From a virus: 64,000 nucleotides of DNA. Below the pieces are notes generated by a model. It did no database searches. It was not told the origin of the DNA and worked only from the letters and a program-made list of their open reading frames with translations. Where the stretch lies: IMG/VR virus record IMGVR_UViG_3300035086_000100, positions 35,060-99,059 of that record; one strand, written 5' to 3'. Made by a program: the position numbers and the translations under genes. Positions 5,594 to 63,976 of this stretch are shown here, piece by piece. Numbering within the stretch: the stretch's first letter is position 1; each line of letters begins with the position of its first letter.

Positions 5594-7819
5594 TCAGTTC
5601 TCTGCGTTGACGAGCGACCGGTACCGGCCACCGCCGAGGTCTTCGGCCACGCCGACCGCTACCAGGTTGCGGAGCGCCTGATCAGCGGAGAACGCGTCCG
5701 TGTCGGCCATCTGCGACACGTCATACAGATCCATCACGCCCCTGCTGGCCAGCCATGCGGCCAGCAGAGGGACGGTGACGGGCTTCGACTCCGGCGGCTG
5801 CGGCAGGTCACCCGAGTCGTGTCGACGGGGCGCGGGCGCATCCTGGGCGGGCGGCGACCAGCGCGGCCCGGCACCCGGTCCGCTGACGACACGGCGAAGC
5901 TCGGCGGTCACCGCGAACGGCAACTGGGAGTCCTTGACGCCATCCGGCAGCGCGGCTATCGCCTCGATCAACTGCGAGCCGTCCAGCACCGACAGCCGGC
6001 CGCCCCACCCGAGCGGCCTGATGACCGCCTCGATCTCGGGGCCGAGTTCCACCACGTCGAGGGAGATCTTCTCGGCCAGTTCCCGCACGTCCGGGCCGTC
6101 CTCGCCCGGCTTGACGTACTCGGGCAGGTGCTTGGTCCGCATCGTCGTAGACGGCCGGTTGTCCGTGCCGTGCAGAAAGCCAAGCCCGTGCACGCCGGGG
6201 GCCAGCGCCGACGTGTCGCCCTGCACGCCCAGCATGTGCTTGCTTAGCCCGTCCGTGCGGTGAGACAGGACATTGAACGCCTTCAGCAATTCGCGGATCG
6301 CCCGCAGGCCCAGTTCGGTGAGGTCCGGCATCTGGACGACCACCTTGACTTTCACGCCGACCTTGCGGCCCTCCATGATGATCGCGGCGACCAGCGGAAT
6401 CGCGATCTTCGACAGCACCGGGTCGCGGACGATCTTCGGCCACTCGTCGATCGTCACGTCGATGATCGGGTTCTCCGGGGTCGGGTCGAACGAGCCCTTG
6501 CCGGTGTTGACCCTGCCCAGGTGGTCGGTCCAGGTCTGGTCGCCGAACCGGGCGGCGCGGTCGCACATGAGAGCGTGCGCCATGATGATCATCTGCACGC
6601 ACGCCTCAAGGCCCCATGCCATCTGGTCGGCGAAGCCCTTCCAGACCGCGAGGGGCTGGCGCTGCGGGTCACCCATCCACAGGGCAATGATCCGCTTGCC
6701 GTCGACCTTCGCCTGGCCTTCCTCGCAGGCGATGACCAGCAGGGAGCCCGTCTTGCCGGATCCCTGCTGGCCGGCCAGGATCCCGGCGGCGACTCCCGAC
6801 CCGGGTATGTGCAGCAGCCAGTGAGCGTCCTCGCCGTCCGCGTACCGCCCGATCCTGACCTTCCCTGTCGCCGGGTCATACGTCGACTTGCCGTCCCACT
6901 TGTCAGCCCGGTTCCACGCGTTCTTGCGGGTCAGAACCGTCACGATCGCCCGCCGCTCCGACCGGTCCGCCGTGTACTCCACGGTGACCTGGTCCCTGCT
7001 CACGTCGAACTGGGCGGCGACCTTCGGGATCAGCGCGAACAAGTCGCCTGTCGTGGTTTCCGACCCGGCGGGCAGCTCGATTTCCAGCGCGAACCCGTCT
7101 TTCACGTCCCGCAGAGAATGGAACCGGGCGCCCTTGCACGGGCCTGACTGCCCGAACCTGGCACTGAACGCCGTCAGCCTCGGGTCAGGAGGAGGGGGAG
7201 CAGCCGGCGCGGGCGCGGGCGGCTCAGGCGGGGGCTCGGGCCGCTTGCGCGCCCGGTACAGGCCGGGAGCGGCGACGGCCAGGCCGCCGCCGAGCATCAC
7301 GAGCTGGCCCCAGCCGTTCAGGACACCCGCAGCGGTCCCTGCCGCCATGGCGGTGCAGCACGCCGCGCACGACGCCCAGGCGGCCTGCCTGCGCGCCCGT
7401 GCCCGGCCCAGCCTGCGCGCCGACGCGCCGTCAGCGGCGAGCCGGGCGGAGATCCTCGCGTGTCGCACCGCCACCCTGACCGCAGCGACCGTGCACGGGG
7501 CAGCGACCAGGGCGTAACCCCACGGCCAGCCGATCGCGTGGCCGCCGGCAACGAGGCCGTCCGCGCCGGCTACCGCGGACAGCGAGGCCAGCGCCCGGTG
7601 CTGGCGCAGGTAGGCGGCCGGGGCGCTGCCCGGCGGGGTGAACTCGGGCGGGTCCGGGTCCGGGCACGGCTTCGACACGGCGCTCTTGCCGCCGGCGGGC
7701 TTCTTCGCGGTCGGTGCCATGGTTCCGGGTCTCCTGCCGTCCTCTTGCGGTTCGGGCCTGATGGCTTCCGCGTCCCCCGCCCGGCTTCGATCCTGCCGGG
7801 CGGGGGACGCGCACGTCAC
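5594..7819 (-). CDS. traB: TraB-type FtsK/SpoIIIE conjugative DNA translocase (alternative start 7720)
   Basis: N-terminal TM helices, Walker A GQQGSGKT, Walker B VTIDE, EGRKVG arginine-finger motif, C-terminal winged helix. Confidence 0.85.
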   Translation of the reverse strand: MTCASPARQDRSRAGDAEAIRPEPQEDGRRPGTMAPTAKKPAGGKSAVSKPCPDPDPPEFTPPGSAPAAYLRQHRALASLSAVAGADGLVAGGHAIGWPWGYALVAAPCTVAAVRVAVRHARISARLAADGASARRLGRARARRQAAWASCAACCTAMAAGTAAGVLNGWGQLVMLGGGLAVAAPGLYRARKRPEPPPEPPAPAPAAPPPPDPRLTAFSARFGQSGPCKGARFHSLRDVKDGFALEIELPAGSETTTGDLFALIPKVAAQFDVSRDQVTVEYTADRSERRAIVTVLTRKNAWNRADKWDGKSTYDPATGKVRIGRYADGEDAHWLLHIPGSGVAAGILAGQQGSGKTGSLLVIACEEGQAKVDGKRIIALWMGDPQRQPLAVWKGFADQMAWGLEACVQMIIMAHALMCDRAARFGDQTWTDHLGRVNTGKGSFDPTPENPIIDVTIDEWPKIVRDPVLSKIAIPLVAAIIMEGRKVGVKVKVVVQMPDLTELGLRAIRELLKAFNVLSHRTDGLSKHMLGVQGDTSALAPGVHGLGFLHGTDNRPSTTMRTKHLPEYVKPGEDGPDVRELAEKISLDVVELGPEIEAVIRPLGWGGRLSVLDGSQLIEAIAALPDGVKDSQLPFAVTAELRRVVSGPGAGPRWSPPAQDAPAPRRHDSGDLPQPPESKPVTVPLLAAWLASRGVMDLYDVSQMADTDAFSADQALRNLVAVGVAEDLGGGRYRSLVNAEN

Positions 7820-8139
7820 CGGCCAGTGCGGGCCTCGTCGGCGTACTGCTTGTGCGGGGTGTTCTCCGGCCCTCCGGCCGCGGCGACAGCCTCGCCGACC
7901 GGGACCTGGGTGTCGTTGACGGTGTCGGTCATCCGGATCCCGGACGCGACAAGGTCGGTGATCTCGGCCTGGAACACGCGGATCGCGGCGGCCTGCGACA
8001 GGTCGCCGTTGTCGGCCTCCACCTGGGCGGCCATCGTGTCGAGCAGGTCACGCAACTGCTGAAGCCGGGTAATGCAGGCGCCGGCCCAGGCAAGCCAGGC
8101 GGCATGAGTGTTCGTCTCGCCGATCAGCGGGGCAGTCAT
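7816..8139 (-). CDS. 107-aa helical hairpin protein (TraA-like)
   Basis: RBS GAGGGAG; colinear paralogue of the C-terminus of the upstream gene. Confidence 0.75.
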   Translation of the reverse strand: MTAPLIGETNTHAAWLAWAGACITRLQQLRDLLDTMAAQVEADNGDLSQAAAIRVFQAEITDLVASGIRMTDTVNDTQVPVGEAVAAAGGPENTPHKQYADEARTGR

Positions 8140-8164
8140 TGGTTCTCCCTCAGGTAGTGGTCGT

Positions 8165-9595
8165 CTACATCTCGGCGTAGTAATCCGGGTCGGCCACCTC
8201 GTCGGAGCCGCCGGCGCCCTGGACCGCGTCCACGTACGGGTCCTGGTGCTGGTTGACTTCCTCGACCAGGTTCCGGCCGTGGGACATCACGGCGGTGACC
8301 TGGTCAAGCCAGGCGGTCACCGCCGCCATGTGCTCCCGGCCGGCGCTCTTCGCGCTCAGGCACTTCAGCGTGTTCTCCGCCGACTGGGCGATGCCTTCGA
8401 GCGCGGCGTCGATCGCGCTGGTCAGCCCTTCCCAGTCGGCCTGGGTGTGCAGTTCACCGTCAGGCGCGCACGTCATCGGGTCTCCTTGCGGTTGCGGCGG
8501 TGCAGCCTGACCGGGCTGCGTCGGCCCTGCCGGGGCATCCGGCGGGGAATTCTGGGCGGCAGCCTCCTGCGCGATCCGGCCGGCTTCGGCGGCCAGGAAC
8601 TCGGCGTCGCCAGCGGTCAGCGGCATCTCGTTGCCGTCCGCGTCCACGGGGGTTCCCGCGGCGGCCAGTTCGGCTGGCTGGCGTTCCCTGACTGCCCCGT
8701 CCGGGTAGCGGGCCGGGATGCGGGTGATGACGCCGTCCTTGCTGCTCGTGCCGCCGTACCCGCAGTACAGGCAGATGTCGGCGTTGGTGGCATTCACCAC
8801 GTACCAGGTGCTTCTGGGCATGAGCTGGCGGTTGCAGCCCGGCTCGGAGCAGATCCTGACCGGCAGTTTCCATCGGGCCGGGTCTGCGCCCTCGCGGCTG
8901 ACTGGCAGGCCCTGGTAGTCCGGGCACAGCAGGCAGCCCGGATTCACGCACGCGAAGCCGGCCAGCGGCTTGCCGCAGCGGACGCAGCGCGGCGCCGGGA
9001 CTGCCCCGGGTTCCGGGTCGCCCACGATCTCCGCGTCGGGAATCTCGTCGTCGGGGGGCAAGTCGCCGTCCCGCATGGCGGGCGGGGCTTCCTCCGCATG
9101 CTCTGCGACGGCCGGACGGCTGGCACCCGGACGGCATGAGCCGCACAGCCCGTCTTTCAGGGCCGTGACAGCGGCGATGCCGCCGCACTGGCCGCACACC
9201 CCGATCCGCAGCAGCCGGGGGCGCTCGCCGTCCCGCAGGCGCTTCCTGGCCTCGCCGTAGGCGTACTTCCCGCCCCGCCATGCCGCTCCGGCGATCCGGC
9301 GCACGATCCCGGCGCCGTTGCGGAACAGCCTGCGGCGGCGCATCGCCGCGCGAACGGCCCTGGCGGTCCTCATCGCCGCCCACGCCCAGAACGCCGGGTA
9401 GAAGGCGCCGCGCTTGCGGTCCTCTTCAAGCCGTTTCGCGAGCGCCGCGCCCGCCTTGGTTCCCTTGTCCTTCAGGGCCTGGAGTACCGCCGCGCGGACC
9501 GTGCGGCCCTCGGCCACGGCCTGCCAGATCCCGGCCTTGCCGGCGGCGTGCACGACCAGCCACGCCACCAGCATCGGCATGAGGACGACCATCAT
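8165..9595 (-). CDS. TraA-like protein: N-terminal TM/basic region, three Cys clusters, C-terminal helical hairpin (possible internal start 8476)
   Basis: RBS AAGGGAG; CxxC pairs; internal AAGGAGA-5nt-ATG. Confidence 0.7.
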   Translation of the reverse strand: MMVVLMPMLVAWLVVHAAGKAGIWQAVAEGRTVRAAVLQALKDKGTKAGAALAKRLEEDRKRGAFYPAFWAWAAMRTARAVRAAMRRRRLFRNGAGIVRRIAGAAWRGGKYAYGEARKRLRDGERPRLLRIGVCGQCGGIAAVTALKDGLCGSCRPGASRPAVAEHAEEAPPAMRDGDLPPDDEIPDAEIVGDPEPGAVPAPRCVRCGKPLAGFACVNPGCLLCPDYQGLPVSREGADPARWKLPVRICSEPGCNRQLMPRSTWYVVNATNADICLYCGYGGTSSKDGVITRIPARYPDGAVRERQPAELAAAGTPVDADGNEMPLTAGDAEFLAAEAGRIAQEAAAQNSPPDAPAGPTQPGQAAPPQPQGDPMTCAPDGELHTQADWEGLTSAIDAALEGIAQSAENTLKCLSAKSAGREHMAAVTAWLDQVTAVMSHGRNLVEEVNQHQDPYVDAVQGAGGSDEVADPDYYAEM

Positions 9596-56343: not shown

Positions 56344-57591
56344 TCAGGTGGCAGGTTCCGGCGGCCGTGCGGGCGATACGTGCATCCGCGCCAGAAGGGC
56401 CACCAGCAAGGCCGCTGCCGGGATTTCCATCCCCAGAATCTCAGGTGACAGGTGCACCCCGAACGTGGCCGCGGCGGTCGCCAGGGTGCCCAGGACCGTC
56501 GTGATTGCCCCTACCGTGACCCGGCGGGTTCCTGTCGTCCTTGTCGTGACCGTGGCCACGACCCCGCTGATGCCGACGATGGCGGTCAGGGTGGCGTGCA
56601 GTTCGGTGGCGGTCAGGTGCAGCCCGAACCGGTTCCGGGCGAACGCCGCCGCGGCGGCGAGGACTGCGGCAGTCCCGGCTGAGGTGAGCAGCGGCTCGGC
56701 GGCGACCGCCCGGGATACTGAGCGGGTCACTGCCGACGTCCTGCCCGCGGCGACGTGGCTGCGGGGCGGCGGAACGTAGCCGGCGGGGAGCATCAGCGAG
56801 ATCCCGGCGGGCATCGGCGCGGACAGGTCCCCGGCGTTGATATAGGCCGTCAGGTCCCCGGCGTAGGTGCCTTCCCTGACCGCTGTCTTGCGCAGGATCG
56901 TGGACGGCAGCGTCCCGGCCGAGCGGGCTATCGCCATCAGGGACTGGCCGCCGGGGGTCTTGTGCATCACCCAGCCGGCGGCGTGCTTCCCCATGGCGCT
57001 GGTCATCGCGCCCATGTCCGGGTAGTTCGCGGCGTTCCGGTCAACGGGCCCGCTGGTGGAGTACTGGTGGACGGACCACAGCGACCACGGCGGGGGGACG
57101 CGCGGGTGCCCTTCGCGGCTCGACGGGTCGGAGATCCACAGCGGGTAGGCGCCCAGGCCCGCGCAGTTGCCGTCCTGCGCGAACGACAGGTAGGTGTACA
57201 GGAACGGCCGGCGGTCCAGCTGCTTCTCAAGTTCCGCCATGACCCCGGCGGCCCAGGCGGCGACGTGAGCGGGCGCCAGGCCGTCAGCCTGCTCCAGGTC
57301 CAGCATGATGCCGTCCGCGTCCCGCAGCCCCAGTTTCCGCAGTTCGGTGACGAACAGCGAGACCGTGACGCTGACGCTGACGGACGGATGGCCGAACAGG
57401 TAGGCGATCCGGGCTTTCCTGTTCGCGGCAAGATACGCCCAGTCGGCGGCTGCGTCCGGGTTCACGTACAGGGAACCGCCGGGGCCGGCTTCGGTGAGCT
57501 TGACCGCAGCCCACGCGATGTTCCCCGCCGCGCCGCGCCACTGGCCCGGGGTGCCCTGGAATGAGGCCACGTCTACGCCGTAGATGAGCAT
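56344..57591 (-). CDS. Endolysin: GH25 muramidase + LysM-like domain + C-terminal 4-TM holin-like domain
   Basis: GVDVASFQG, KLTE, AYLF, LDLE, PLWI, HQYS, VDRN; SLMAIAR LysM; EP..FGLHLT..FGVHLS..R.HVSP. Confidence 0.88.
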   Translation of the reverse strand: MLIYGVDVASFQGTPGQWRGAAGNIAWAAVKLTEAGPGGSLYVNPDAAADWAYLAANRKARIAYLFGHPSVSVSVTVSLFVTELRKLGLRDADGIMLDLEQADGLAPAHVAAWAAGVMAELEKQLDRRPFLYTYLSFAQDGNCAGLGAYPLWISDPSSREGHPRVPPPWSLWSVHQYSTSGPVDRNAANYPDMGAMTSAMGKHAAGWVMHKTPGGQSLMAIARSAGTLPSTILRKTAVREGTYAGDLTAYINAGDLSAPMPAGISLMLPAGYVPPPRSHVAAGRTSAVTRSVSRAVAAEPLLTSAGTAAVLAAAAAFARNRFGLHLTATELHATLTAIVGISGVVATVTTRTTGTRRVTVGAITTVLGTLATAAATFGVHLSPEILGMEIPAAALLVALLARMHVSPARPPEPAT

Positions 57592-57659: not shown

Positions 57660-57818
57660 TCACTGGCCGTCTTCCGGGCCGAGCCGGGAGTGAATCTCGG
57701 CGAACCGCCGGTCGTCCTCGAGGCGGTGCCGCCATTGCAGGACCCCGTTCACCGATGCGATGAGAGCGGCTGCGGCAGCTAGGATCGCCGCGACTGCGCT
57801 CACCCCGTTCGCTGTCAC
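57660..57818 (-). CDS. Small single-TM lysis-cassette protein
   Basis: AVAAILAAAAALIASV; EDDRRF. Confidence 0.6.
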   Translation of the reverse strand: MTANGVSAVAAILAAAAALIASVNGVLQWRHRLEDDRRFAEIHSRLGPEDGQ

Positions 57819-57843
57819 CGCCCCGCCTTCCCCCGCGTCCCGG

Positions 57844-58263
57844 TCACTTCCGGTAGAGCCTCGCGCAGTCAACCGGCCTGAACACGCCGTGCACGTACAC
57901 CCGGAACGCGCGCACGGTCGCCAGCCGTCTCGCCCGTTCCGCCGGGGTCTCGCGCGGCGGCGGCACTGACACGCTGATGACGTGGTCCCACAGCCGGACC
58001 TGGGCGGTGCGGTAGCCGTTGCCGAGCGCGCAGCCGTTGACCTGGGTCCTGCGGATGGAGTCGGACACGCTGATCTGGCCGGCCGCGAGGAAGATCGTCA
58101 CGATCGACAGGGTGACGTCCAGGGCGACGGACACGGCGAGCCAGCGGGTTACCTTCTTGCTCCTGGCCTGCTGCTTCACGATCGCGGCCTGCGTTGCGGC
58201 AGCTTTCCCGGCGATGCTGATGGCCCGCTCGGCGAGTTCGGCTACCGGGTCCGGGCTAGGCAC
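57844..58263 (-). CDS. Single-TM protein with C-terminal Cys pair
   Basis: Coiled coil, TM WLAVSVALDVTLSIV, C..N..R..W..P.DC. Confidence 0.7.
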   Translation of the reverse strand: MPSPDPVAELAERAISIAGKAAATQAAIVKQQARSKKVTRWLAVSVALDVTLSIVTIFLAAGQISVSDSIRRTQVNGCALGNGYRTAQVRLWDHVISVSVPPPRETPAERARRLATVRAFRVYVHGVFRPVDCARLYRK

Positions 58264-58765
58264 TGGCGACCTTGCGGCGGATCGATGCCCCGGTGAACAT
58301 GCCGAGACTGGTGACGAACGGGGCAAGCCGGATGTCGACGGCTACCTCTTCCCCGGTGCGGCGCCGCATCCTCAGGTCCAGCGCGGCGCCCATGGCCCGG
58401 GTGCGGGGCTCGGACATGAACAGGGGCCGGTTCCGTTCCGCGTGCTGGTCGCGGAGCCGTTCGGGCAGGAGCACCTCGACGGGCTGGCCCCGCAGTACCG
58501 ACCGGGGGTAGCCGGTGAGCAGCTCGGCTTCGGAGTTGATCAGCGCGATCAGGCCGTCTTCCCCGACCACGACGACGGCATCGAGGGCATGGAACAAGGC
58601 GATGGCGATCTCGGAGATCAGCAGGTCCTCGGCGGACGGCCCCGAGCTTTCCCGCAGCGCCGCCGTCTCCCCGGACAGCCGGTCCATCGCTGCGGCGAGG
58701 AGCCGTGACGCGCCCGCGAGCTGCTCACCGGTCGCGGTCAGCGCCGCCACGTCCGGATCGGTCAC
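58256..58765 (-). CDS. Coiled coil + PAS domain protein (FixL-like)
   Basis: DAVVVVGEDGLI.LINSEAELLTGY....GQPVEVLLPERLRDQH..RRRTGEE..V.I.L.P. Confidence 0.9.
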   Translation of the reverse strand: MTDPDVAALTATGEQLAGASRLLAAAMDRLSGETAALRESSGPSAEDLLISEIAIALFHALDAVVVVGEDGLIALINSEAELLTGYPRSVLRGQPVEVLLPERLRDQHAERNRPLFMSEPRTRAMGAALDLRMRRRTGEEVAVDIRLAPFVTSLGMFTGASIRRKVASA

Positions 58766-58950
58766 GCAGGCTCCCCTTCCGCGCTGATCTGCTTCTGCCG
58801 TTCCACGTTCGCCTGCGCCGCCGCGAGTATCCGCCGCATGTCCGCCACCGTGGCATTCAGGTCGCTCACCAGGGCCTCGGCCTGCGCCACCAGGTCGTCG
58901 ATCCGCCGGTCTTTCGCGAGCAACTCGGCGGCGGGGTCAGTCCGGGCCAT
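58762..58950 (-). CDS. Small coiled-coil protein (62 aa)
   Basis: RBS GGAGG; MARTDPAAELLAKDRRIDDL. Confidence 0.65.
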   Translation of the reverse strand: MARTDPAAELLAKDRRIDDLVAQAEALVSDLNATVADMRRILAAAQANVERQKQISAEGEPA

Positions 58951-59245
58951 TGCCTGCCTCCAGCCGTCCGAGGCTCTCGGTGATCTGCCGCAGCGACGTC
59001 GAGATGGCGGACAGCGACGGCAGCACTTCCCCGACCTGGGATTCGATGAGCCGGTCCCGCTGCTCGATGGCCTTGTCCCGCGCGGCGACCAGTTCGGCGC
59101 GCATGGACTGAGCCTGGTCCCACAGCACCGACGCCTCAGAGGTGGACACCTTGCCGCTCGAGGCACGGCGCGTGGTCAGCCACGTCAGCAGGGCGCCGGC
59201 GATCAGGGCCGCAGCGGAGATGCCCGCGGTGATCAGGGCGCTCAC
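58937..59245 (-). CDS. Holin-like N-terminal TM + coiled coil
   Basis: LITAGISAAALIAGALLTWL, SGKV.TSEA..LW. Confidence 0.75.
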   Translation of the reverse strand: MSALITAGISAAALIAGALLTWLTTRRASSGKVSTSEASVLWDQAQSMRAELVAARDKAIEQRDRLIESQVGEVLPSLSAISTSLRQITESLGRLEAGNGPD

Positions 59246-59278
59246 CGGGCCCTCCCGCCTCTGCCGGGATCACGCCGG

Positions 59279-59854
59279 TCACTTCTTCGCCGCGTACGCC
59301 AGCAGCAGCCCGAGCACGGCGACCGCCAGCACGGCGATGCCGACGACCGCGCCCAGGTTCAGCCTGGTCTCGCCGCGCACCTCGCGGGTTTCGGTGACCT
59401 GTTCCTTGCCGCCCTGCCCGCGCGACTGCGCGTCCCGCAGGTCCCTGATGTCTTTCTGAATCGGCTCAAGGGCTGCGGAGAGGGAGGTGACTGCGGCCGA
59501 CGCGGCGGCGGCGACCTGGACGCGGGACGCCTCGGCGGTGGCGATGAGCTGGTTGGCCAGGGCGCTCGCCTGCGTGGCCGCGACTTCGGCGGCACGGTTC
59601 ACCGCGCCCACGTCAACGGCGCGGATGGCGTCGATCCGGGCCGTCTCGGCCTGCCGCAGCTCGGAGTCCTTCACATCGCGGAGCCTGGCCATCTCGGCGG
59701 CGTGCTCGCGGGCGAGGCGCGTTACCTCGGCTGCGTGCGAGGCAACCAGGTCGCGCATGTCGTCCTGGCGCTGCATCGCGGACTTGACCAGCGCGACCAC
59801 GTTTTCGGTCGGGTCGACGTAGGGGACGCCGCCCGGCGGCTGCGGCGCGGTCAC
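59279..59854 (-). CDS. Coiled-coil protein with C-terminal TM
   Basis: DPT.NV..RQDD.R..R.DAIR.VD; TM LGAVVGIAVLAVAVLGLLL. Confidence 0.75.
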   Translation of the reverse strand: MTAPQPPGGVPYVDPTENVVALVKSAMQRQDDMRDLVASHAAEVTRLAREHAAEMARLRDVKDSELRQAETARIDAIRAVDVGAVNRAAEVAATQASALANQLIATAEASRVQVAAAASAAVTSLSAALEPIQKDIRDLRDAQSRGQGGKEQVTETREVRGETRLNLGAVVGIAVLAVAVLGLLLAYAAKK

Positions 59855-59856
59855 GG

Positions 59857-60192
59857 TTAGTAGCTTTCGAGCACGTCAGCGGCCGGAACGGTGATGGTCT
59901 GCCCGCCCGTGACGACCCGGACGAACGGCTGATACTGCCCCGGCGCGAGCACCCCGGTTGCCCCTGACCCGATCTGGCACCGGACCCGGTACGTGCCGTC
60001 AGCGGCGATCAGCCAGTTCGCGGCGAGGAACACGGCAGCGTCGGGACTCTGGCCGACCGGGACGAACGCGACCGTCACCGGAAGCGCGAGCGTGACCGGG
60101 TTGAGCGGGTTCCCGGCGTCGTCTTCGAGTGCCTGCATGCTGATGAGCACGTTGCGCACCGGGTCGGTGGAGACGATGCGGGCAAGGCCCAT
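59857..60192 (-). CDS. Ig-like/BppU-like virion adaptor protein
   Basis: Beta-rich; L.PG.Y. Confidence 0.6.
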   Translation of the reverse strand: MGLARIVSTDPVRNVLISMQALEDDAGNPLNPVTLALPVTVAFVPVGQSPDAAVFLAANWLIAADGTYRVRCQIGSGATGVLAPGQYQPFVRVVTGGQTITVPAADVLESY

Positions 60193-62418
60193 CTAGGTCA
60201 CCGCCCCTGCCGTAATCTCTCCGCGGACAGGACCGGCTCTGGCTTGCTGCACCACGTGACCGGCGGCGAACGCCGTCACGATGCCGCCGGCCCTGACCAG
60301 GGCGGTGAAGGTGAGGGTGAACGACCCGCTGGCGGCCGAGACGGTGACCGCGGCGCCGACGAGGAAGATGCCGGACAGGATGTCCGCGGCGGTCACGCTG
60401 ACCGTGACCGACGTGCCGGCGAGAGTGACCGCGACCGTCAGCGCGGCAGCGGTGCCCGAATGGCCCGAAGCGGTGCCGGCCAGGGCGGCGGTCCAGGCGA
60501 GAGCCCCGGCCGACCCGGAGACGGTGACGGCAGGCCCGGTCAGCGCGGCGATCTGCGCGAGCGCCCCCGACGCGATTCCCGCCGATGCCGCTGTTCCCGC
60601 CAGGGCTTCAAGCCCGGACAGGGCGGCAGTGCTGGAAGACGACGCCGATGCTGTTCCCGCGATGACGGCGGTCCAGGCGAGAGCGCCCGAAGCGGACGGG
60701 GACGAGGCAGCGGACCCGCTGATAGCGGCAGTCCATGCCAGCGAGCCCGAAGCCGCGGCGGCCGAAGCGCTCAAGCCAGCCAGGACGGCAAGCCATGCTA
60801 GCGACCCGGCCGAGGTGCTGGCCGTTGCACACGAACCCGCGAGGCTCAGCGCCTGCGTGAAGTCGCCGGCGGACGTGCCCGGGGTTGCGGCGGTCCCGGC
60901 CAGGACCATCGCCTGGGCGAGCGAGCCCGTTGCGGTTGCAGCGGTTGCGGCTGTACCGGCGAGCGATCCGGGTGTTCCGAAATCGCCTGCGGCACTGCTG
61001 GCGGTCGAGCCCGTTCCCGAGATGACGGTCAGCCATGCGAGGCTGCCCGCCGCGGCAGACGTGCACGGCGCGGTGCCGCTGAGGCTCATCTGCTGCGCGA
61101 GAGCCCCGGCCGACGACGACGCTGACGACGCCGTCCCGGCCAGGACCGCGGTCCAGGCGAAGGCGCCAGCCGACGACGAAACGGAGGCAGCCGACCCGGC
61201 GATGACCGCAGACCACGCGAGGCTGCCCGATGCGGAACCGGCGCTGGAAGCGGTGCCGGACAGCGCGGCGGCCCACGCGAGTGACCCGGCCGCGGACGAT
61301 GCCGAAGCCGACGCGCCGGCGATCGCGACCAGCGGGAGCGCCCCGGCCGCAGATGAAGCCGTTGAGGCGGTACCCGCTACGACTGCGGTCCAGGCAAGCG
61401 AGCCCGCGGCGGAAGACGACGGAGCCGCGGTGCCCGAGAGAGCGGCCTGCCACGCCAGCGCCCCCGACGCCGTGCTGACCGGTGACGCCGTGCCCGCGAG
61501 CGCCGCAGTCCACGCGAGGGCACCAGTGGCGGCAGGGGAGTTTGCCGCAGTACCCGAGATGACCGCAGACCAGGCCAGCGAACCGGACGACGACGAAGAT
61601 TGCGACGCGGTTCCGGCGAGGGCGGCCCGCCACGCCAGCGACCCCGCAGCCGAGCTGGAAGCCGGCGCCGTGCCGGCGAGGACGGCGGTCCAGGCCAGTG
61701 CCCCGGCGGACGTGCAGGTCGTCGTGCCGGTCCCGGCCAGCGTCCAGGCGGTCGCCCCGGACGCCAGCTGGAACGCGACGAGGATGGTTTCCCAGCCGTC
61801 GACCGCGGAGCCGGACAGGGACCACGACGCCGACTCGGCTGCGCTGGTGCTGTTCTTGTAGGAGCAGAACAGGGTCGCGGAGCCGTTGGCGTTGACGTTG
61901 GCGGCGTCCGCGGTGTACCCGGTGGCGTTGGTGACGGTGACGCCGTCGCCGGGGTCGCCGTAGACGCCGAGCAGGTACTCGTTCGCGGCGGCGGTGGTGT
62001 AGGCGCCGGAGGTGGCCGGGCTGGCGGTGCCGTGGTTCTTCCCGCCGGTCCCGTCGATCATCGCCGTGGTGTTGCCGGCCAGGAGCCCGGAGACTTCCTG
62101 GGCCAGCATGGTCACGCCGAAGTTCGTGCTGACCGTCGCGGTGATCGTCGGCTTGGTCCCGACGTCGCCGGAGGGGGTGTCCATCGCCCAGACTTCGACG
62201 AAAACGGCACCGGACAGGACTACCGAGACGAGCTTGGTCAGCGCGTTATTCGAGCCGTCCTTGACCGCGGTGACGGGCTCGACCCCGCCGGAGGAGTTGG
62301 ACACGCAGATCGCGCAGATGATCTTGCTGCCTGATGACAGGTTCGCTGCAGTGAAGGTGACGGTGCCGTTGCCGGAGGTGACGGTGTGGGAGGCGGACTG
62401 CAGGCGTGACCAGGCCAC
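60193..62418 (-). CDS. Fibre-like virion protein: beta-rich N-domain + 24 x 20-aa repeats
   Basis: Consensus xAxLAGTAxxxSxAxGxLAW. Confidence 0.75.
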   Translation of the reverse strand: MAWSRLQSASHTVTSGNGTVTFTAANLSSGSKIICAICVSNSSGGVEPVTAVKDGSNNALTKLVSVVLSGAVFVEVWAMDTPSGDVGTKPTITATVSTNFGVTMLAQEVSGLLAGNTTAMIDGTGGKNHGTASPATSGAYTTAAANEYLLGVYGDPGDGVTVTNATGYTADAANVNANGSATLFCSYKNSTSAAESASWSLSGSAVDGWETILVAFQLASGATAWTLAGTGTTTCTSAGALAWTAVLAGTAPASSSAAGSLAWRAALAGTASQSSSSSGSLAWSAVISGTAANSPAATGALAWTAALAGTASPVSTASGALAWQAALSGTAAPSSSAAGSLAWTAVVAGTASTASSAAGALPLVAIAGASASASSAAGSLAWAAALSGTASSAGSASGSLAWSAVIAGSAASVSSSAGAFAWTAVLAGTASSASSSAGALAQQMSLSGTAPCTSAAAGSLAWLTVISGTGSTASSAAGDFGTPGSLAGTAATAATATGSLAQAMVLAGTAATPGTSAGDFTQALSLAGSCATASTSAGSLAWLAVLAGLSASAAAASGSLAWTAAISGSAASSPSASGALAWTAVIAGTASASSSSTAALSGLEALAGTAASAGIASGALAQIAALTGPAVTVSGSAGALAWTAALAGTASGHSGTAAALTVAVTLAGTSVTVSVTAADILSGIFLVGAAVTVSAASGSFTLTFTALVRAGGIVTAFAAGHVVQQARAGPVRGEITAGAVT
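60315..61750 (-). repeat. ~60-bp degenerate coding tandem repeat, 24 units
   Basis: 20-aa periodicity in the translation. Confidence 0.85.
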
Positions 62419-62761: not shown

Positions 62762-63190
62762 TCAAAGCGTGCAAGTGAAGGCGGCTGCGGCGGCGGTCAA
62801 ACTATCCCCAACGAGCGGGGTTCGGGCATTGGCCAGCAGGAACGCCGCCAGGATGAGGCTGGTCGTACCCGACACGGCGTCAGTCAGCACCGCCCACGTG
62901 GTCGTGCCCGGCCCGGCGGTGGTGATCGGCCCGTAGGTCAGGGTGCCCGCGTTGGAGATCACCGAGGGGGAAGCGGCCGACGCGGCGCCGGGGCCGAACA
63001 CCTGCCGGGCGTACCCGTCGGACGTGGAGAACTCGGTCAGCGCCGCCATCGTCAAGTCGGTGGCGTTCGGCGCGGCGGTGATCAGCGCCAGCCAGATCGA
63101 GCCCGCCGCGGCCGACTGGGTTTTGCGGAAGACGGCTTCGAGGGCTATCTGCTCGCCGTGCTCGACAAGCTGGCCTGCTGCGAGCGGCAT
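62762..63190 (-). CDS. Small virion fibre subunit-like protein (142 aa)
   Basis: WLALITAAP..E...GYARQ..ISN....Y..W..L.DA.SG..GDSLT. Confidence 0.7.
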   Translation of the reverse strand: MPLAAGQLVEHGEQIALEAVFRKTQSAAAGSIWLALITAAPNATDLTMAALTEFSTSDGYARQVFGPGAASAASPSVISNAGTLTYGPITTAGPGTTTWAVLTDAVSGTTSLILAAFLLANARTPLVGDSLTAAAAAFTCTL

Positions 63191-63610: not shown

Positions 63611-63976
63611 ATGCCGATTTTGCCAGCAGATCCGGGTGTCCTGAAGATGACGGCCCGGACGGACGGCGAGGTGACCGTGATCGGGGTCGTCGGGGAACTG
63701 GACGCGTGGACAGCGCCCCTGTTCCGGGAGCGGGTCGGCACAGTTCTCGGGTCGGGGAACATCCGGATCGTGATCGACTTGTCGGGCTGCGAGTTCCTGG
63801 ATTCCACGGGCCTGGGCCTGATCGTCGGCGCGCTGAAACGGGCGGTCGCGGCAGGCGGCGGGCTGGCGGTCGCCTGCGACTGCGAGCGGCTCCTGAAAAC
63901 GTTCCGGATCACCGGCCTGGACAAGGTGCTCGCGATCCGCGGCACCGCCGCCGAGGCGGCCCTGGCGGTCGCCTAG
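63611..63976 (+). CDS. STAS anti-sigma-factor antagonist (RsbV/BldG-like)
   Basis: V.GELD..TAP..IDLSG.EFLDSTGLG.IV..F.ITGL. Confidence 0.92.
   Translation: MPILPADPGVLKMTARTDGEVTVIGVVGELDAWTAPLFRERVGTVLGSGNIRIVIDLSGCEFLDSTGLGLIVGALKRAVAAGGGLAVACDCERLLKTFRITGLDKVLAIRGTAAEAALAVA

Follow-up and report, generated by a model that had tools for sequence, protein, structure and literature searches.

A stand-alone heme-type PAS protein in a movable phage membrane-protein module, a candidate modulator of lysis timing

The DNA analysed here is a window of 64,000 nucleotides, the last 64 kb of the 99-kb virus record IMGVR_UViG_3300035086_000100 in IMG/VR. It has a G+C content of ~70%, and a sequencing-run search placed the stretch in one DNA run, from a rhizosphere metagenome that is possibly the sample of origin (no RNA run was listed). 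It comes from an uncultured phage of soil actinobacteria. On the minus strand, the fibre genes are separated from a GH25 endolysin gene by positions 57660-59854, which are filled by six tightly coupled small genes, here called A, B, C, the PAS gene, E and F. An earlier note on this DNA had described such a block and had read one of its genes as a FixL-like PAS sensor that sets the time of lysis. We determined gene starts by reading the sequence for start codons and ribosome-binding sites, and called transmembrane segments (TMs) in the window from hydropathy. One strongly hydrophobic segment each is found in A, B, E and F, which confirms the four TM genes described before. The claim that most of the six form coiled coils fared less well: the proteins have a helical, Ala-rich look, and in a crude heptad test only C beat its shuffled versions (1/200). 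The G+C content at third codon positions (GC3) is 0.80-0.92 in all six genes. No promoter-like site was found inside the block, and the sole such site on the minus strand lies upstream of the fibre block.

The PAS gene (58256-58765, minus strand; GC3 0.89) encodes 169 amino acids and overlaps both neighbours, as had been noticed. Its GTG start shares the letters GTGA with the stop codon of C, an overlap of 4 nt, and E begins 8 nt before the PAS reading frame ends. Pfam recognises the domain as PF00989 (31.8 bits, gathering threshold 22.6) and as PF13426 (29.4 bits, gathering threshold 27). It finds no other domain, neither the HisKA/HATPase pair of FixL nor any other output, again in line with the earlier description. 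An AlphaFold2 model built from 27 sequences has a predicted local distance difference test (pLDDT) score of 84 and consists of two helices (residues 4-40 and 45-57) and a five-stranded PAS core (63-164), with a less confident FG loop (block-mean pLDDT ~66-79). The protein ends 5 residues past the last PAS strand. A hydropathy peak at residues 49-67 corresponds to the buried N-cap helix and the first strand and is not a true TM.

Both sequence and fold connect the protein to heme-binding PAS domains. The best phmmer match in the PDB is 10jx, the FG214 domain (8e-12 over ~104 aligned residues), and the 14 best matches are all heme-PAS, FG214 being followed by 13 heme domains of EcDOS/DosP and FixL (E-values for FixL and EcDOS 6e-5 to 2e-3). 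Likewise, ~33 heme-PAS structures head the Foldseek list of PDB matches ahead of all other PAS types, with a TM-score of 0.88 and a root-mean-square deviation of 2.0 Å against BjFixLH. The nearest solved relatives are thus heme-PAS and not flavin, LOV or ligand-free PAS domains, and the label FixL-like given by the earlier note holds at this level. We are highly confident that the protein has a genuine heme-type PAS fold. Judged by its sequence and its fold, it belongs to the heme-PAS sensor-domain class but is not a FixL or a DosP, because it has no output domain.

FG214, the best match in both sequence and fold, is the heme-b PAS domain of a helix-turn-helix (HTH)-PAS one-component regulator of Fimbriimonas ginsengisoli (PDB 10jx/10jy; PMC13060918). 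Heme is bound proximally by His156, and little of it remains in the H156I variant. On the distal side the ligand is His175 or, alternatively, Met172, which gives His-Met coordination in the crystal of the reduced form; His159 has an influence on coordination (PMC13060918). In the phmmer alignment, His108 of the window protein falls on FG214 His156, BjFixL His200 and EcDOS His77, so that the proximal His is present. The segment LLPERLRDQH places it on the His of BjFixL PEPDRSRH, EcDOS RPAHPE and FG214 REVHQE, which bears out the earlier match of this motif to the heme-ligating His of FixL. Met125 aligns with the alternative distal ligand Met172. The remaining pocket positions differ: Ala128 stands at the distal His175, Arg111/Asn112 at His159 and Ala127 at FixL Arg220. 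Arg113 and Arg121 align with BjFixL Arg206 and His214, which we take to be binders of the heme propionates. The window protein shares with FixL and EcDOS the PAS subtype, the His on the F-alpha helix and a basic residue at FixL Arg206, but it lacks their kinase or phosphodiesterase output, and in the column of EcDOS Met95 it has no Met, its own Met lying two residues earlier. It differs from FG214 also in having no HTH, in its helical N-terminus of 57 residues and in being phage-encoded among membrane-protein genes. We consider it probable that the protein binds heme.

All cellular relatives (30-46% identity) are domains of histidine kinases or GGDEF proteins, and a full representative search was dominated by multi-PAS kinases and brought out no further stand-alone proteins of use. 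Closer to the window protein are short proteins with 48-57% identity (P0003, P0168, P0174, P0175/L016, L014 and L015) and the near-copy P0002. A maximum-likelihood tree unites these with the window protein in a group of eight stand-alone PAS proteins, supported at 98/94. The group has diverged to ~50% identity, with 45 positions invariant among five phage-group members. All eight proteins have the proximal His and the Met, and six have the second His, while four retain the FG214-type distal His (MGxH) and thereby the full FG214 set. The PAS proteins of L014 and L015 keep all four of these heme-pocket residues. Beyond this group, tblastn of the PAS protein, A, the endolysin, E and B against 50,697 cultured-phage records (INPHARED) gave no match, and three IMG/VR scans with PAS alignments, run with narrow patterns, yielded no confirmed member.

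Among 80 metagenome loci, only L014-L016 encode the PAS domain at the end of a short protein. Gene context was read for these three and for the window, leaving out P0002, P0003, P0168 and P0174. In L014 (15.9 kb), the major capsid gene (Pfam Phage_cap_E) is followed by a 4-TM protein, the PAS protein, an overlapping helical protein with an N-terminal TM, and late genes that by eye are those of connector and tail. L015 has the same three genes (4-TM, PAS, N-terminal-TM helical), and the PAS proteins of L014 (6859-7551, plus strand) and L015 (621-1280, plus strand) carry an N-terminal TM of their own. In L016 (2856-3989, plus strand), a 134-residue heme-type PAS protein, a 141-residue PAS protein matching PAS_4 and a 99-residue helical protein with an N-terminal TM directly follow the major capsid gene. 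In L014-L016, therefore, the PAS domain always adjoins or is fused to membrane anchors.

In the window, the PAS gene is embedded between C and E. C (58762-58950, minus strand) is a soluble helical protein of 62 residues, translationally coupled to PAS. It starts inside a longer open reading frame (ORF) at ATG 58950, which follows a GGAGG site, and its first 14 nt coincide with the end of B. B (58937-59245, minus strand; 102 residues) is preceded by a GGGAGG ribosome-binding site and has an N-terminal TM with predicted N-out/C-in topology, a basic patch (TTRRASSGK) and a helical cytoplasmic domain. E (57844-58263, minus strand; 139 residues) has a predicted cytoplasmic N-terminal helix, one TM and an extracytoplasmic C-terminal domain of 75 residues, in which two Cys are invariant in an alignment of E homologues. 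It most likely starts at GTG 58263, and public gene callers also give 139 residues; TTG 58326 was considered as its start and dropped in favour of this codon. The protein atlas places E only among viral hypothetical clusters, and Pfam and PHROG searches of A, B, C, E and F returned nothing useful. The N-termini of C (MARTDPAAELL, from 58950), PAS (MTDPDVAAL, from 58765) and E (MPSPDPVAELA, from 58263) resemble one another. BLAST found no significant similarity among the three proteins, and the likeness could reflect the constraints of overlapping stop and start codons.

Downstream of E follows F (57660-57818, minus strand), 52 residues from GTG 57818 with an N-terminal TM and a tail in which 45% of the residues are charged; its ribosome-binding site reads GGGGGAAGG. 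By its sequence F is a holin-like small membrane protein immediately upstream of the endolysin. The endolysin (56344-57591, minus strand; ~415 residues) matches Pfam Glyco_hydro_25 at 2.5e-18 and the PHROG endolysin family at 6e-20. Its most likely start is ATG 57591, which has a ribosome-binding site and agrees with a relative in L013 (61% identity) that starts at the equivalent Met; the alternative ATG 57735 overlaps F and was rejected. The C-terminal tail of the endolysin is hydrophobic and rich in Ala, Thr and Gly, and its last ~120 residues (56344-56720, minus strand) contain two to three moderately hydrophobic segments with 19-residue Kyte-Doolittle means of 1.6-1.8. The tail may anchor the enzyme in the membrane or represent a holin-like portion fused to it. 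The window endolysin has no separate downstream 2-TM holin gene, unlike that of the complete relative G003.

Homologues of E are P0271-P0273, and those at L094-L096 were found on IMG/VR contigs by a scan with an alignment of E homologues; a scan of IMG/VR with E alone returned none. L094 and L095 also contain homologues of B, at 64-67% identity. In L094, B (67%), C (58%) and E (53%) are all present, C and E overlap directly, and the slot between them is empty. In L095, the order is B, C (44%), an unrelated 142-residue gene and E. This slot protein (7453-7881, plus strand) is rich in Cys, His and Trp, has no Pfam match and overlaps E by 4 nt. L096, part of the complete 103.5-kb record G003, encodes a 4-TM protein, a helical protein with an N-terminal TM, a 3-TM protein, a C-like helix and two E paralogues. 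The cluster sits between the tail-tube and tape-measure genes, an odd place for membrane-protein genes, and its E paralogues (7968-8915, plus strand) are diverged and in tandem. Records G001-G004, three of them fragments, gave no match to the PAS profile. No homologue of A was found in L094-L096 or in INPHARED, and A on this comparison lies outside the conserved module. An insertion of C and PAS as a two-gene unit was considered and rejected, since C occurs without PAS in L094.

The position relative to the endolysin also varies. The module lies ~13 kb from an Amidase_2 endolysin in G001 and ~20 kb from the GH25 endolysin in G003. In G003, a close homologue of the 111-residue protein that ends the fibre block of the window is followed by three opposite-strand genes, the GH25 endolysin and an 80-residue 2-TM holin-like protein. 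In L013, the slot before the endolysin holds a helical protein with an N-terminal TM, a protein with a mid-sequence TM and a 118-residue protein, and no PAS protein. From the comparisons with L094-L096, G001, G003 and L013 it follows that B-C-E is a conserved, movable membrane module, that the PAS gene occupies a variable slot within it, and that the position of the module before the endolysin is specific to the window phage. The C/E slot seems to accept interchangeable accessory genes.

B resembles in architecture a known lysis protein, one member of the holin-like pair LysF1a/LysF1b. LysF1b, a helical protein with one transmembrane domain (TMD) in N-out/C-in orientation, is needed for timely lysis of F1-cluster mycobacteriophages, as shown by deletion. 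Of the M. smegmatis phages, ~80% have LysF1b-like proteins, whose partners contain two or four TMDs; a 4-TMD partner is found in ~30% (PMC13056207). They are recognised by a length of 92-150 residues, one N-terminal TMD, basic residues after it, and a helical cytoplasmic C-domain with 30-50% charged residues (PMC13056207). In size and topology B is of this kind, with 102 residues, a hydrophobic stretch at 3-21 followed by TTRRASSGK, and helicity judged from composition. It departs from the pattern in that its C-domain is 27% charged and the adjoining window genes have at most one TM, which leaves it without a 2- or 4-TMD partner. The partners in L014-L016 share the LysF1b architecture as well, and in L014 and L015 they are paired with a 4-TMD protein. 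This is a likeness of architecture and not homology: there is no detectable sequence similarity, and LysF1 cassettes contain no PAS protein. The 4-TM and N-terminal-TM helical flanks of the PAS proteins in L014-L016 may nevertheless be read as partial support for a role in lysis.

FG214 provides a model for signalling without an enzymatic output, since reduction or ligand binding switches it from monomer to dimer (PMC13060918). With this switch on one side and the LysF1b-like architecture of the neighbours on the other, we propose a heme sensor that tunes a late membrane event, most probably lysis. The 169-residue protein would be a cytoplasmic stand-alone PAS sensor of the FixL/DosP/FG214 class that binds heme b. 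As the alignment suggests, heme would be held by His108 as the proximal ligand, while the distal site would either be open or possibly take Met125 as sixth ligand. Encoded in the variable slot of the membrane module B-C-E, which in the window phage lies directly before the one-TM protein F and the GH25 endolysin, the protein would be an accessory subunit of that module. A change in heme redox state or gas ligation would alter PAS dimerisation or the exposure of the N-terminal helix, as in FG214, and the altered state would change binding to the cytoplasmic helices of B, C or E. In this way the late membrane action of the module, most probably lysis timing, would come to follow the host hypha's oxygen or redox state. 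As a whole, a heme-type PAS sensor that modulates a membrane module and thereby most probably lysis timing is a tentative proposal, to which we give somewhat less than an even chance. That the PAS protein acts through the neighbouring membrane proteins comes close to even odds. Lysis timing as the output is possible but doubtful, and we regard as rather unlikely the most specific version, in which an exchangeable heme sensor of gas and redox state serves a membrane lysis-control module in phages of filamentous actinobacteria and bursting is gated by oxygen, nitric oxide or carbon monoxide, and redox.

The proposed role has parallels in phage biology. VqmA binds the autoinducer DPO and has a DNA-binding output. 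The T4 protein RIII is cytoplasmic, as is the predicted location of the window PAS protein. T4 RI and RIII with holin T, P1 LydB with LydA (PMC9025707) and the lysis-inhibition proteins of ICP1 (PMC7182436) resemble the proposed arrangement in that a small accessory protein acts on the lysis proteins of the membrane and fits the time of lysis to a signal. These proteins have no sequence or fold relation to the window protein, and none of them has a cofactor-type sensor domain. VqmA of vibriophage VP882 (PMC8284805) is, like the protein described here, a phage-encoded PAS protein, a receptor that reads a chemical cue and decides host killing. It is of a different PAS subtype and not a cofactor sensor, however, and operates a transcriptional switch from lysogeny to lysis rather than a late membrane module.

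Several findings weigh against the proposal. The PAS protein is dispensable for the module, given that L094 and L096 have B-C-E without it and L095 has an unrelated gene in the slot. A linkage to lysis genes does not hold across the relatives: the module is 13-20 kb away from the endolysins of G001 and G003, a separate 2-TM holin-like gene stands next to the GH25 endolysin of the complete relative G003, and the PAS relatives with 53-57% identity follow the capsid gene (L014, L016) and do not adjoin an endolysin. Of the environment-sensing lysis control suggested in the earlier note, the stand-alone FixL-like PAS domain stands and the link to lysis is supported only in part. BLAST detected no sequence similarity among the partners of different PAS-group members, which share architecture only, and a BLAST comparison of the small window proteins with the PAS neighbours in L013-L016 gave nothing significant. 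The same PAS subtype is very common in sensor kinases, where it often occurs in 3-6 tandem copies. Lastly, the window protein lacks counterparts of His159 and His175 (FG214) and of Arg220 (FixL), and its heme affinity or chemistry may differ.

The best-surviving alternative, which we consider possible although we would not favour it, keeps the PAS protein as a sensor of heme or another ligand but denies B-C-E a role as a lysis device. The module might instead serve superinfection exclusion, envelope remodelling or DNA transfer of the phage TraB type, or the PAS protein might be a decoy that pairs with the PAS domains of host sensor kinases, and the place before the endolysin would be an accident of modules being shuffled into a variable region. 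The distance of the module from the endolysins in G001 and G003 fits this explanation, as do the separate holin-like gene in G003, the other genes found there after the 111-residue protein and the varying content of the C/E slot. Cellular PAS relatives, all from histidine kinases or GGDEF proteins, would be possible heterodimer partners for a decoy. A chance neighbourhood agrees less well with the tight coupling of PAS translation to both C and E, and in every case read the module lies in a late operon. Moreover, the PAS relatives are membrane-anchored or stand beside N-terminal-TM and 4-TM proteins of the kind known from actinophage lysis (PMC13056207).

A second alternative, which we think unlikely, is that the PAS protein functions without heme, serving the membrane module simply as a subunit for dimerisation or as an adaptor, or else binding another small molecule. 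Two of the four FG214 pocket residues are gone (the His159 and His175 equivalents), Ala stands at the FixL Arg220 position, and the FG loop is modelled at the lower confidence given above. The subtype is also repeated many times within single kinases, and many tandem copies are unusual for known heme sensors. Yet the proximal His and the Met have remained invariant in a phage group that has diverged to about half identity. FG214 M172I still binds heme, all four single mutants of FG214 keep partial heme binding, and FixL relies on a single His (PMC13060918). The loss of two pocket residues need not abolish binding, because the FG214 single mutants retain it in part. That the PAS gene is what remains of a captured kinase domain, in decay or without function, as its lack in relatives with the B-C-E module might suggest, is highly improbable in view of its intact frame, a GC3 like that of its neighbours, a good ribosome-binding site, the confidently predicted fold and the conservation of the phage group at 45 positions.

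The remaining features of the region lie at its upstream side. A (59279-59854, minus strand), the first gene of the block, encodes 191 residues with a helical N-terminal domain and a C-terminal TM. It is preceded by the gene of the conserved 111-residue protein (59857-60192, minus strand), the last of the fibre block and the upstream edge of the variable region. Further upstream are a 741-residue fibre-like protein with many Ala/Ser/Gly-rich repeats in the list of ORFs (60193-62418, minus strand) and a fibre protein with a Gp80 fibre domain (62762-63190, minus strand). The 741-residue protein consists largely of repeats of ~20 residues (GSLAWTAVLAGTAS...SSAAG), of which Tandem Repeats Finder detects almost nothing at the DNA level. 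A 526-residue ORF with a GC3 of 0.83 (60281-61861, plus strand) runs opposite these repeats and is probably their shadow. At the end of the record, opposite the fibre operon, an ORF (63611-63976, plus strand) resembles, by eye only, a STAS-type anti-sigma-factor antagonist; it may belong to the phage as cargo or to flanking host DNA.

Literature searches for PAS or heme sensors in phage lysis turned up neither a described phage heme-PAS nor a PAS protein within a lysis cassette, in keeping with the earlier note, which knew of no characterised example of such lysis control. Whatever the output, stand-alone heme-type PAS proteins that form a phage-specific group and are tied to membrane partners are undescribed in the literature searched. 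The B-C-E module, with its variable slot, offers a natural comparison of membrane modules with and without a PAS protein. Lysis timing is a central life-history trait of phages, and its known inputs are the accumulation of holin, the energisation of the membrane and, in a few phages, superinfection signals. Should the proposal be true, this would be the first time that a phage lysis pathway is found to contain a cofactor-based environmental sensor. A heme-PAS that is linked to late membrane proteins would extend these inputs by a direct readout of oxygen or redox state, a matter of relevance in soil and mycelial pellets with their patchy oxygen supply.

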